64,000 nucleotides of DNA from Octopus vulgaris. Lineage: Eukaryota. The notes beneath the pieces were generated by a model. It was not told where the DNA came from. It worked only from the letters and a program-made list of their open reading frames with translations, and did not search any database. Location of the stretch: assembly GCA_951406725.2 (NCBI GenBank), contig OX597815.1:122326001-122390000 (forward strand), written 5' to 3'. The first letter of the stretch is position 1, and each line of letters starts with the position of its first letter. The translations under genes and the position numbers were made by a program. This document shows positions 32 through 57,000 of this stretch, one piece after another.

Positions 32-3000
32 CTGAAATAAACAGAAGGCAAATCAAAATCCAAACTAAATACAGATTTTTAAAAATATTATGCTAAACTA
101 TGAGATAAACTATAAAACATATAAAAAACATGAAATATAATTAAAATTATTTCTTTTTACATTCAATGATAAACAATAAAATATGTGTTGACTAGTTAAT
201 AACAAAATTACTTTAGAAGAAAATGTATAACTTACTTATGTCTCTAGTTGGTGTTGCAGACTCTGTTGTCTCCAAAGGTTGACTTTCTCCCTCTTCATTA
301 ACAGCAATCACACGGAAGTAATATTCAGTTCCCTCAACTAAACCAAGAACTCTGGCAACAGTACATTTGGGATCAATTTCTTCTGCTTTGAGCCACGACA
401 CACGTGCAGCAGATCTTACTTCAACAATATATTTAGTGAGAGGAGTGCCTCCATCACTGTCAGGAGCTTTCCATTCAAGATCAACATAGTCATAAGAGAC
501 TTTGGTAATATCAAGTGGCCCTTTAGGACGAGATGGTACACCTAGAGAACACAGAGAAACAATAAAATGTACCACTCCATACATTTATTTGCAAATGTAT
601 AAACATAAAATTTCAAATACAAAATCAGTTCAAATAAGGAAGATAAGAAATTTAACTTTTTCTCAAAACCAAGTGAAATTTATTAAGCTTATAAAATTTA
701 TAAAGATTATAAGGTAATCACAAAAACTTTTATGAAGTAAAACGTTACATAATTAGTAACTAATACTACATCAAAAAAATTTTAAGACATTGATTATATG
801 AGACAATTCAAATATATAACTTACTGAATGAGCTCTTTGCCATTGTTGATGCATCGGTCTCTAATGGATCACTAAGACCAATTTTATTAATTGCAGTAAC
901 TCTGAACTCATATTCACAGTTCTGTCTCAGATCCTCAACACGGTGGTTGGTCACTGATGGTGCTACCTTAGCCACATTGCTCCAGTATTGTCTATTAGCC
1001 TCTTTCTTTTCAATAATGTAACCAGTGAGAGGACTACCTCCATCATCTTCTGGAGCTTTCCAGGAAATGGAAATAGATGTTTTCTCAATATCATAGGTTT
1101 TCAGAGGACCAATTGGTTTTGATGGTTTTTCTAAAAATACAAAACAGTACACAATGATAGAATAATGTCTCTCAAGTTATACTTACATCAAATACCAAGA
1201 AAGTTTAAGATCTATCAACAAAAATTACACAGTGATATTGAATGTCTTACCAAGAGGTCGCATTGGTGTAACTGCATATTCTGAATTACAGTAAGGACTT
1301 AGACCAACTTTGTTCTCAGCTTGAATACAGAAGTAGTAGGACAGATTCTGTTTCAAGTCTCTCAAATGACAACTGTGTTCAAAAGCTGATACAGTTTTCA
1401 CTTTAGTCTTCACATCAGATGATGTACCACCCATTTCAGATATGATGTAATTGGTGATTTTAGAACCTCCATCTGAATGTGGTTTCTTCCATTCCAAGAT
1501 TGCAAAGTCAGGACCAACCTGTGTAGCTCTGAAGTAAATTGGTGCACTTGGTGGCTCTGAAAAACATTTCCAATAAAATATTTTTAATACACAAAATTCT
1601 CTGATAATCTTTAATATTCTACTGTATGAAGGATAAATACAAAGCTTCTGAAAATCTGAAGACAAAATTCTAATGAGAAATAGATTATTACTCACCAATC
1701 TTCCTCACTGGTTTTGTGACATCAGTAGATTCAAGTGGTTTGCTCTGTCCTTCAGCATTAACAGCAAAGACACGGAAATGGTAACTTGTGTCTTCTGTAA
1801 GATTTGGTACTGTAAATGTGGTAGTTTTCTCATTAACAGTGCCTGCTTTAGTCCAGAAGGTTCTGGAATCTATTCTGTGTTCAATAATGTATCCAGTTAT
1901 TGGTGTACCACCATCATTGGCAGATGGTTTCCAGCTCAAGTCAGCAGAATTATTGGTGACATTTGTGATCTCCAATGGACCAACTGGTGCAGATGGCACA
2001 TCTAAGAAATAATTAAAAACATAGATGAATGAATAATCTTTCAAGCTATTATTGTTGTTAGATTCTTTGATACATTTCATGCAGCTTCTTAAAATATTTA
2101 AGCTAAATGGCCACAGCTATTGCACTTGTACATCCAATTTTTATTTCATTCGTTATTTTATTTTAGCACTTATTGCACATACATTTTTGTCACATATAAG
2201 TCGTACATACATTTGCTTATAAAGATTAAGACACTCCCTTGTGAAATAAACAGGAGTATATTGATATATGTATTGAAGTCTTTTCTCTTTTTGTCTGATG
2301 TGGAGTGGGAAGATTTTATAACAGAATTACAGAATCCAGAAATAATCACAGTACAATAAGTATTCTACAAATTAGGTGTTTTATGAAATTTCTTAATTTA
2401 GATGTTGCTACATCAATAGTTAATGTTGAAAGATTGAAAATTAATTGACCCAAGTATAAAATGAATTAGAATGTGAAAACACATAACTGAATATTTCAAG
2501 GCATTTTGTTCAACTATCAACTGACTCTACCTTTCACCACCCTCTGTAACATGAATAATAATGATTTCTAACCTTTTTGAGAGTGCTACAGTCAAGTAAA
2601 TTAATATTAATATTTTGCTAGTACTCACTCCATTTATCCCAATTGGACTAAATAATAATGACTAATAAATTCAATTTGTAAAATTAACAAAGTGAAGGAG
2701 CTTGGTTTGCACATTTTATGTTGCCATTTTTTTTATATGGTGTTTAAATTGTCTTAGTTACCATTAAAAGCAAATTTTCAATGATACATTCACTTTGAAA
2801 TAATTGAACTTACCAAATGGACTTCTGGCCATTGTTGCTTCTTTTGTTTCTAAAGGTTCACTCTCTCCAATTTTGTTTTCAGCAATCACTCTAAAGTGAT
2901 ACATGGTTCTTTCTTGGAGATCCCTAACACAACAATCTGTGGTGTCAGCACGGACTTTAGTAACCTTTGACCAGAATCGAGCAGACTCATGGCGTTTTTC

Positions 3001-54000: not shown

Positions 54001-57000
54001 TTTATTTTACATACCATATGGACTCTTAGCAAGAGTTGTTCCTTCAGTTTCCAAAGGAGGACTCTGTCCAATTTCATTTTCAGCAAAGACACGGAAATAA
54101 TATTCAGTTTTCTCAATAAGGTTCTTGCAACAGAGTTCTGTAGTTGAAGCACTGGTTCGATCAACTTTAGACCACTTGTTACGAGATGCTTCTTGTTTCT
54201 CAACCAAATAACCAATGATGGGAGAACCACCATCATCCTTAGGTGCTTTCCATTTAATAGTAATTGAATTTCTTTGGACATCAATGACAGAAATTGGACC
54301 AATTGGTATTGAAGGTGCAACTGAAATATATTTAAAGAGGAAAGTTTAGTTTTAATTAAATGATAAATACTGCCCTCATGAAACATAAAACTCAGCCAAT
54401 AAAGTAGCATAAAGATGACAGTAATTCTTGTGATTCTTTTTGCATTTTGGAAAAGACTTCCATATTTAGAGGATAATTTTTCAGACAATTAATCTCATCT
54501 GTTGAGAATATATTAATATTTACATTAGGTTTTTATTACTAATTATTATAAGGTACCTTATCTCAAATATATTTGCAAACCAAATTCAAACAAGGACACA
54601 TTATTTCTAAATCTTATTGTTAACTTCCCAATCTACTAAGCACTTGGTGCATATATTAAGACACTGGAACATGTGACAGAGTGGCTAAGAATCTTTTGTT
54701 TGAATCAAAAGTTCTAGTTCAAGTTTCATGGAATGAATGTACATGTTCGGAAATAAGGCATCTTATGATAATTGGAGTTTGAATCAATGTGAATATAATT
54801 CACACTCCCAAAAGTAACTCAATACTCTGGACAATTATCATCTGCATAATAACTCATTTCATAATATTAGATCTTTAAATAATCAATAGTTTATATTTTA
54901 AGTGAATATTTTAAATGGAAAATCATATCCTTTGTAGTGATTCTCATACAAACATGTGTAGTTTCAGATGTTTTATTATCTTTCAACAGTATATTGGCCC
55001 AGTTAAAGCACAGTACCACTCATCCAAGCAATGATTAAATAAGCAGGACACAAAAAGTTATTAATGAAACAAACAGTCTCTTACGTAATTCTTTTTGTGG
55101 TTTAACAGGCTTTGTTTCACAAGGTTCACTTAAGCCAATCTTGTTTTCAGCAAAAACTGCAAAATAATACTTGGTATCATCTTTCAAGTCTTTAATTCTG
55201 CAAGAATTATCAAAAGCTTCAACAGTTGTCACTTTAGTCCATTTGTCATCTTCTTTCTTCTTGATGATATATTTGGTAACCTTAGAACCACCATCTCTCA
55301 ATGGTGGTAACCATTCTAAGTCTACAAAGTTGGTTCCAATTTTCACAGGTTTCAAATTTGTAGGAGGTCCGGGTGGGGCTATATTAAAAAAAGGAGAAAA
55401 CAAAAATGTGAATAAAGATTTGAAAGAAAAAGAATTATTTAATGTTAATTAATTGATCATTATGGTAGAAGATTATTTATTACAAATTAACTATGAAAAT
55501 AAAATAATCATTTTAAAATAATGACATCCAAATTTGATTAAAATTTAGTAAGAGTTATGTATATAAGATAATTAACAATATAGAATATTTTATAGGCTAT
55601 TGCTTAAATTTCTTACATTCAACCATTACACTCCTTACAATTATTTTATTCTTTTAATTATCTTATATTGAGCATGTGTATTATATGTATGAAAAATAAT
55701 TTATTTTATGTGCAAAATAAAAAGTTTTTCTGCTTAGTAATGATAATTTGTTGTAATTCTATTTTAAGTGTGAGTAGTTGAGCACTAGTTCCTGAAAATA
55801 TAAAGTATAAATATTTTCACTTAGATGAGTAATGAATATATTTCAAACATTCTTACATATTATTTCAATTCTAGATTTGCATTCAAGAATCTATAGGAAG
55901 CTATTGGTGAATGAATTTTGTTGGTGTTGAGAAAACTTTATTAAGATTTCCATGTAAATTACAAAAATATAATGTAATTATAAGAATGAACTACATACAC
56001 AAATCTTTCATTGGTTTGGTTTCATCAAGAGCAACAAGTGGCCTGCTTATTCCTTCTGAGTTTATTGCACTGACTCGGAAAAGATACACAGTGCCATCGG
56101 TCAGATTCTGAGCTGTGTATTTTGTTATATCAGGAGCTACAACACCACATCTTGTCCACGATGGACGATCAGTTGAACTGACTTCAATAATATAATTAAT
56201 GATGTCAGAACCACCGTCACTTTCAGGAGGTTTCCAAGAAAGGTCAGCTGAGTTGTGAGTGACATTATCAACAATAAGTGGGCCTCTTGGACTATATGGA
56301 ACATCTAATAAACAGAAAAAAGTTTTTAATTACACTCATTCATATGAAGTAGTTTTGCTTATTTTAGAGATAAAACAACTTTTATTTTTATAAACAACAA
56401 ACTAAAGTAGTAGATACATTTAATTTCGAATGAAAGACATTACAAGAAAATACAAAGGTATAATGGATAGAAATATTGTTTTTGTTAAAAGCACTTAAAA
56501 TTAAGAGAACATTATATTCTATATTAGTGATTTGATAAACATCTATTGAAAATTACAAGTAAATGAGTAGCTTTGAAATTTAATTTATGATTCATTAATT
56601 TCATACCATATTTGTGTTTAGCCAATGTAGCTTCAGAAGTTTCAAGAGGTTCACTTTGTCCAACTTCATTAATAGCAATTACTCTAAAATGATATTCTGT
56701 TTTTTCTTCAAGATTCTTCACACAGTACTGAGTGATGAAATCAGCAACTTTATCAACCTTCGACCATACTTTACTGGAAGCTTCTCGCTTCTCAATAAGA
56801 TATCCTGTCAAAGGTGAACCACCATCTTCTTTTGGTGGTAACCATTTAATTGTAATGCTATTTCTTTGGACATCAACAACCACAATAGGACCTGTTGCTT
56901 TAAATGGAGCAGCTAGAAAATATAAAAGAAAGATTGATTTGTAATTAGAAATTAAATATCAAAATATATTGAAATATTAAGCAATAAAATATGAATATAA

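Follow-up and report, generated by a model that had tools for sequence, protein, structure and literature searches.

A nine-domain super-repeat built from three-domain units in the long Fn3 array of a titin-like locus of Octopus vulgaris

We analysed a 64,000-nt stretch of the Octopus vulgaris genome (assembly GCA_951406725.2, contig OX597815.1, positions 122,326,001 to 122,390,000; hereafter the window, in whose coordinates positions are given, including negative ones and those above 64 kb in neighbouring sequence). It lies within an unbroken Ig-free run of 142 Fn3 domains extending from 81.7 kb to -47.4 kb, in which domains of three classes (A, B and C) mostly follow one another as C-A-B trimers and domains 27-116 form ten copies (90 domains) of a nine-domain unit, the nonamer. 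One nonamer was joined exon by exon, in order, in RNA-like contigs, and the array is flanked by exons in a titin-like order. The locus apparently belongs to the titin/connectin family, with a super-repeat that was built independently and is apparently undescribed. On sequence grounds, we give about even chances to a reading in which the array, as an extended rod, takes hold of the outer thick filament at many points, is tethered by a PEVK-like spring and carries a selected site in every ninth domain, and does not measure the whole filament; its localisation, partner and spacing we infer.

A motif scan of the window detected 74 Fn3 cores on the minus strand, and the array ran beyond both window ends when the neighbouring stretches were examined. 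The array domains matched Pfam fn3, and an Ig search over all 142 returned no credible hit (only one 7-bit hit, on an Fn3 exon). The array and its nonamers are arranged as follows:

236..62898, minus strand: 74 complete Fn3 domains (nos. 16-89 of 142), in 68 single-domain phase-1 exons (294-306 nt) and one six-domain exon
46905..55378, minus strand: nonamer r0 (B1 C1 A1 B2 C2 A2 B3 C3 A3), domains 27-35
37369..45764, minus strand: nonamer r1, domains 36-44
28997..36875, minus strand: nonamer r2, domains 45-53, joined in order and without a skip in RNA-like contigs of three studies
21448..28528, minus strand: nonamer r3, domains 54-62, the first four domains old and the last five homogenised with r4-r6
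15987..21297, minus strand: nonamer r4, domains 63-71, patchily homogenised
6991..14725, minus strand: nonamer r5, domains 72-80, patchily homogenised
236..6865, minus strand: nonamer r6, domains 81-89, patchily homogenised
1..31, minus strand: start of nonamer r7 (domain 90); r7-r9 lie outside the window, reaching about 25 kb beyond the left edge

Splice boundaries were derived independently of an earlier sequence-only reading, which had proposed a strict B-C-A order with a 3-in-9 hierarchy across 236-55378. The 14 subtype coordinates given there, together with the end at 55378, all coincided with exact exon boundaries (15/15), and the strict order was borne out by the 63 single-domain phase-1 minus-strand exons of this interval. 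Beyond it, every one of domains 1-117 was closest to the class predicted from its position when its own lag-9 copies were excluded (117/117); the tail past about domain 117 departs from this order. With regular expressions somewhat looser than the motifs originally proposed, N.EG marked all 21 A domains and none in B or C, and (V/I)G.(D/N/S)(F/Y) marked all 21 B domains. The absence of the FRV arginine from class B was likewise recovered, FR(V/I) occurring in one of 21 B domains compared with 41 of 42 A and C domains. The motifs proposed for class C described it only in part (DVQR-type in 15/21, AKSPF-type in 16/21). VS(Y/H)(D/N)(Y/H)VDL and the KKG-type endings each occurred seven times at a spacing of exactly nine domains. 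The earlier count of seven complete nonamers is correct for the window but too low as a total, since three more beyond the window bring it to ten.

Mean amino acid identity across 236-55378 was 37% at lag 1, 50% at lag 3, 49% at lag 6, 74% at lag 9, and 68% at lag 18. In the old part of the array (28.2-55.4 kb), the values at lags 3, 6, and 9 were 51%, 50%, and 60%, so that lag-9 identity exceeded identity at lags 3 and 6 in both sets, as the sequence-only reading had expected. Examined domain by domain, lag 9 was above the mean of lags 3 and 6 in 23 of the 27 domains of r0-r2 and in 17 of the 18 domains of r7-r8 compared onward, and the best partner lay at a multiple of nine for 86 of the 90 nonamer domains. 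Identity was 57.4% within subtypes and 47.3% between them, a difference reached by none of 5000 triplet shuffles when three of the four homogenised copies were dropped and seven of the ten nonamers kept. These tests treat related domains as independent, which makes their p-values approximate; the effect is large. Lag-9 structure was not significant upstream of domain 27 (15/25 domains, p 0.11) and was lacking in the tail (7/17). Peaks were found at lags 3 and 9, with none at lags 7 or 11, and no exon had been gained or lost out of register across the ten nonamers. Two longer periods were rejected: one of 18 domains (2 x 9 = 72.5 nm at 4.03 nm), since identity at lag 18 fell below that at lag 9, and one of 15 domains, since lag 15 equalled lag 3. 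The B3 exons (e.g. 38589-38891 and 31397-31699) were also distinguished by the lack of the strand-C' tryptophan in all ten copies and by one to four cysteines; B1 and B2 have this tryptophan.

Splicing was read from one contig in each of three runs belonging to three studies (17,140, 9,319, and 9,517 nt), none of which is on record as RNA, the contigs being taken as transcripts solely from their intron-free exon joins. The alignment covered 28.1-41.4 kb only, and contigs drop rare isoforms. Exons were joined at exactly the predicted boundaries, and the record offsets left room for precisely the unlisted 303-nt exons; r2 and its neighbours were thus joined in order with no skip. The size of the 17,140-nt contig fits domains 2-58. 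All three contigs stopped 1601 nt past a shared point, 77 nt inside the first homogenised exon; such breaks are expected at the onset of near-identical copies.

The likeness among the central copies extends to their short introns, most clearly in two blocks:

7666..9815: block 98.7% identical (pairwise) to 17073-19219, short introns included
6065..6868: B1-C1 block 97.8% identical (pairwise) to 13925-14728

The A2-B3-C3 part of the first block recurs at 791-2015 and 22461-23674 (95-97%). Across the patches of r3-r6, exons and short introns are 91-100% identical, exon clusters taken with their short introns 95-99%, and long introns are unrelated, in a pattern that differs by position; the four central copies appear to have been partly homogenised by in-register gene conversion. 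The A3 exons of r3, r4, and r5 (within 236-24213) are 94-97% identical, synonymous sites included, with both flanking introns unrelated, pointing to gene conversion limited to the exon. Fourfold-degenerate sites are 37-51% identical between independent nonamers (43% at lags 3/6, 36% at random) and hence near saturation, which implies an ancient nonamer expansion.

The closest homologues are two Ig-free gastropod proteins, from Lottia (P0001) and Bulinus (P0121). Both are in C-A-B order and share with octopus the domain periods of 102/102/101, giving a 305-residue trimer. Identity at lags 3, 6, and 9 was 78, 71, and 61 in Lottia and 62, 53, and 46 in Bulinus; the fragments (17 and 40 domains) therefore show a lag-3 peak and no lag-9 peak. 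The trimer thus appears to be old in molluscs and the nonamer later, and the nonamer may simply be a duplication unit of the octopus lineage, given that both gastropods keep the trimer without the lag-9 peak. No named array from squid, cuttlefish, nautilus, or bivalve was recovered by the homologue searches, which is weak evidence, as most were limited to proteins of at most 3000, 5000, or 2000 residues. Class trees, which cover A and B only (the B tree in a quick version), contained supported groups free of gastropod members for B2 (10/10), B3 (10/10), B1 (9/10), and A3 (9/10). Long Ig-free runs of titin-type Fn3 were also noted in starfish, acorn worm, brachiopod, leech, rotifer, and flatworm (P0122, P0127, P0024, P0181, P0187, and P0188), hinting that an Ig-free Fn3 segment may be ancestral in bilaterian titins.

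Among the nine positions, A3 is the most conserved, and one of its exons serves as an example:

37369..37674, minus strand: A3 exon of r1; the others end at 236, 6991, 15987, 21448, 28997, and 46905

Six independent A3 copies share 72% amino acid identity, compared with 60-66% for A1 and A2. The subtype has seven diagnostic columns, is constantly acidic (mean net charge -5.2), and stands in the tree on a long stem (0.35), with short branches within the group. These features suggest position-specific selection on A3, which is not proven, as younger age alone also raises lag-9 identity.

The C-A-B trimer was modelled with a pLDDT of 94.9 and a pTM of 0.64 from a 19-row alignment; a single-sequence fold of six domains (pTM 0.26) left the domain arrangement unusable. 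The best match of the trimer model was titin A84-A86 (Z 22.3, rmsd 10.0 Å, 297 residues aligned). Superimposed on the last three Fn3 domains of the titin 11-domain repeat on the cardiac thick filament, 299 of 304 residues aligned with an rmsd of 5.1 Å, a value that sets no tight bound on trimer length. With 304 residues compared with 302, the modelled trimer thus corresponds to titin's Fn3 triple without its Ig, and the nonamer is accordingly likely to span 35-41 nm. On the filament, titin measures 3.89-4.02 nm per domain (3.98), and isolated domains 4-4.5 nm (PMC7427331). These spacings predict 12-13.5 nm for a trimer, 35-41 nm for a nonamer (35-36 nm at 3.9-4.0 nm and 40.5 nm at 4.5 nm), and 0.55-0.64 µm for the array, whereas a match to 14.5/43.5 nm requires 4.83 nm per domain. 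For projectin, we arrived at a rough estimate of 4.3-4.8 nm from the epitope distances of PMC9886278 over about 52 domains, a count deduced from epitope names. Every junction in the octopus array belongs to the long type (48-50 residues from anchor to anchor, compared with 43-49 in fish titin), and about 1 nm is gained from a three-residue linker (PMC10665226). The whole array would span about 0.55-0.69 µm by calculation; squid thick filaments measure 7.4 µm in the arm and 0.81 µm in the tentacle (PMC4757648), no values for octopus having been found. The array is therefore too short for half of an arm-type filament of 7.4 µm and could act there at the tip region only, not as a whole-filament ruler. 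A ruler function is somewhat disfavoured: of the earlier interpretation, the 3-in-9 hierarchy and the titin-family context stand, and the match to a filament repeat is conjectural.

The titin-like locus covers about 550 kb, all on one strand, in the order spectrin-type exons, Ig clusters, giant E/V/K/P-rich exons, Ig tandem, mixed Ig/Fn3, 142 Fn3, Fn3-Fn3-Ig-Ig-Fn3, kinase, and Ig. Upstream of the array, the Ig clusters reach 364 kb and spectrin-type exons lie at 376 and 384 kb, with Spectrin_7 and DUF7799 exons directly upstream of the first Ig cluster. The PEVK-like exons, on the same strand, encode 1159-5416 aa with 38-50% P+E+V+K, some with periods of 46 or 92 residues. They include the giant intron-less exons L034-L036 (194093-210340) and neighbours at 145-287 kb, together well over 15,000 residues, and the longest frame (5416 aa) has a 92-residue period with 72% self-identity. 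Downstream of the array, a four-exon kinase of the titin/twitchin/MLCK group carries HLDLK and DFG motifs and is 52-57% identical over its four exons to the kinase of Octopus bimaculoides twitchin (P0211); Ig exons continue to at least -190 kb. We infer that the PEVK-like region, the array, and the kinase belong to one transcript.

In the reading that we favour, an extended multivalent Fn3 rod would lie along the outer thick filament, and the upstream PEVK-like spring would link it to Z-material. Starting from an ancestral mollusc trimer of 305 residues, three already diverged trimers would have been duplicated as a tandem block, up to ten copies in the lineage to octopus, and in-register gene conversion would later have homogenised parts of the four central copies. 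Some positions, acidic A3 above all, would be under selection and would offer a putative binding surface in each nonamer, at intervals of about 35-41 nm if the domains are spaced as in titin. Several points weigh against this reading. Higher lag-9 identity is expected anyway, as copies nine domains apart are younger than those three apart; A1 and A2 were not recovered as clades in the class tree; C1 and A2 lack diagnostic columns; and the comparison arrays comprise two gastropod fragments only. The inter-domain geometry of the model has only moderate confidence (pTM 0.64) and could reflect titin structures learned by the predictor, and the last Fn3, kinase, and Ig exons are separated by gaps of 13-51 kb.

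Alternatively, the nine-domain period could be functionless, a chance duplication unit kept in register by unequal crossing-over and gene conversion, with selection acting only on the fold and perhaps on the trimer. The gastropods expanded the same trimer, with identity decaying from lag 3 and no lag-9 peak; the Ig-free runs of starfish and acorn worm (40 and 31 Fn3) show little or no period; recent in-register homogenisation is visible in octopus; and synonymous sites reach saturation fast, so that the higher lag-9 identity can be explained by younger age alone. The long stem, diagnostic columns, and constant acidic charge of A3, its conservation above A1 and A2 of the same age, and the ten copies without any out-of-register exon change argue in the other direction, and we regard this explanation as unlikely, though one to be taken seriously. 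An assembly artefact, by which near-identical central nonamers would create the period, is very improbable. Several exon pairs of r3-r6 are indeed 99-100% identical in the assembly, which may affect the copy number, but the long introns between near-identical blocks differ, the period holds in old copies (23/27 domains in r0-r2 and 17/18 in r7-r9), and the contigs of three studies stop equally far into the first homogenised exon, as if near-identical copies were present in the samples. As the source of the period itself, an artefact is refuted.

The two remaining alternatives concern filament geometry. Actin has a crossover of 36 nm, tropomyosin a period of 38.5 nm, and paramyosin a repeat of 72.5 nm. 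The array could be an independently evolved titin A-band template made of Fn3 only, with three domains per 14.5-nm myosin crown and nine per 43.5-nm repeat, the acidic A3 docking an accessory protein once per repeat, whether to place such proteins or to set tip length. An exact 3x3 hierarchy, a trimer length conserved to the residue from gastropods to octopus, the long-type junctions, with about 1 nm gained per three-residue linker, and the projectin estimate, which touches the required spacing, are in keeping with it, as are about ten repeats most alike in mid-array, as in the C-zone of titin. We nevertheless doubt it, both as a whole and in its docking of A3: 4.83 nm per domain would be needed, compared with the shorter values for titin and isolated domains; the trimer equals titin's Fn3 triple without Ig, whereas titin has 3.5-3.7 domains per crown; the array is short against squid arm and tentacle filaments; and the lag-15 excess that the paramyosin repeat would predict at 4.83 nm is lacking. 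If it were true, in-frame skipping of nonamers or changes in their number would help to tune thick-filament architecture between cephalopod muscles that share a myosin. An array along the thin filament, with one nonamer per actin crossover or tropomyosin period, seems improbable. Plausible spacings give 9 x 3.98 = 35.8 nm and 9 x 4.28 = 38.5 nm, but such a match in length is weak, because several filament repeats fall within 35-41 nm, half of 72.5 nm among them. The closest structures are myosin-associated A-band Fn3 domains of titin, and a place between spring and kinase is the A-band position in titin. The 38.5-nm option fits by length alone.

Outside the nonamers, the window contains three further features of the array:

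63773..64000, minus strand: 3' part of domain 15 (class B), whose exon begins beyond the window at 64072
55999..62898, minus strand: domains 16-26, a zone of trimers in C-A-B order that lies upstream of the nonamers; the lag-9 excess is weak and non-significant over domains 2-26
59465..61291, minus strand: single intron-less exon with six Fn3 domains (B-C-A-B-C-A), natural linkers directly readable

In a close relative (P0412), 94-99% identical domain by domain, the frame is likewise continuous. The presence of six domains in one exon, in an array otherwise made of one domain per exon, suggests that precise loss of five introns produced it. Introns often contain microsatellites and SINE-like pieces, and a short, high-copy repeat at about 32510-32565 reaches thousands-fold contig depth. 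Right after the last array Fn3, a 216-aa Gln/His/Tyr/Ser-rich frame (L015-L016, about -49.6 to -50.2 kb) is a candidate for an alternative C-terminal exon that would close an isoform ahead of the kinase. A 331-aa frame (L004, about -160.2 to -161.2 kb), located between the kinase and the last Ig exons, has a Ser/Arg/Tyr/Asp-rich repeat with a 20-residue period, which we liken to the unique inserts in the M-line part of titin. The same strand of this contig carries a further MLCK/titin-type kinase exon about 410 kb downstream (G000:C2:121809009-121809212).

A full-text literature search, with most subscription journals outside its reach, found no description of the octopus Fn3 array. Octopus sinensis is included in the trees of PMC12198301, and the gene is therefore probably already known as a connectin; the available text of that paper, figures aside, does not mention a mollusc Fn3 repeat, and 'titin' does not occur in the available text of a review of cephalopod muscle molecules (PMC5430041). 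Chordates have one titin with I-band and A-band parts, and in arthropods and nematodes these are split between I-connectin and twitchin/projectin (PMC12198301). The octopus locus appears to hold both an I-band-like and an A-band-like part, the latter with a hierarchical super-repeat made from different bricks, in a genome that also has twitchin. It is relevant to two questions: whether the ancestral titin was a long, filament-binding one, and whether filament geometry or the mechanics of duplication gives rise to super-repeats. Squid muscles cover a tenfold range of thick-filament length with identical myosin (PMC4757648), and the octopus gene offers a concrete, exon-level candidate for such differences.

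Compared with known systems, the locus has a titin-type Fn3 tandem, Ig tandems and PEVK-like exons upstream, and an Fn3-kinase-Ig end, as in the titin/connectin family; a vertebrate-type mixed Ig-Fn3 repeat of 7 or 11 domains was not found. The titin-like proteins of Patiria and Saccoglossus have Ig-free runs of 31-40 related Fn3 domains but, unlike octopus, no C-A-B classes and little or no periodicity. Twitchin and projectin have related Fn3 domains and kinase and short Fn3 groups in a repeating pattern; twitchin, however, alternates Ig with Fn3, its longest Ig-free run being three domains in Octopus twitchin (P0211), whereas the octopus array is Ig-free. The twitchin orthologue was located on another contig (C7), 91-100% identical to P0211 over most exons, a level that assigns the genome to Octopus, and twitchin is thus a gene separate from the array locus. 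Drosophila Sallimus/I-connectin and Caenorhabditis elegans TTN-1 resemble the octopus locus in having Ig clusters at the N-terminal end, giant exons of PEVK-like type, and spectrin-type exons upstream, which may reflect the 'connectitin' synteny of PMC12198301, with spectrin-repeat (zormin/CCDC141-like) and SEC14 genes on the upstream side, but Sallimus has five terminal Fn domains (PMC9886278) where octopus has 142 in one run plus a kinase. The Lottia and Bulinus proteins share the trimer order and domain periods, and Bulinus matches the array tail domains in order, but their duplication, as far as the two fragments extend, is at the trimer level only. With the vertebrate titin A-band, octopus shares the Fn3 subfamily, the top sequence and fold matches being titin A-band tandems; a C-to-A linker (SPF/SPY) that resembles the [N/Y]PF linker of titin (PMC10665226); hierarchical repeats from tandem duplication that are most alike in the middle; and a locus ending in Ig-Ig-Fn3-kinase-Ig. 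It differs from titin in an array that is Ig-free over 142 domains, with periods of 3 and 9 instead of 7 and 11 and almost all exons encoding one domain, and in a kinase that keeps DFG.

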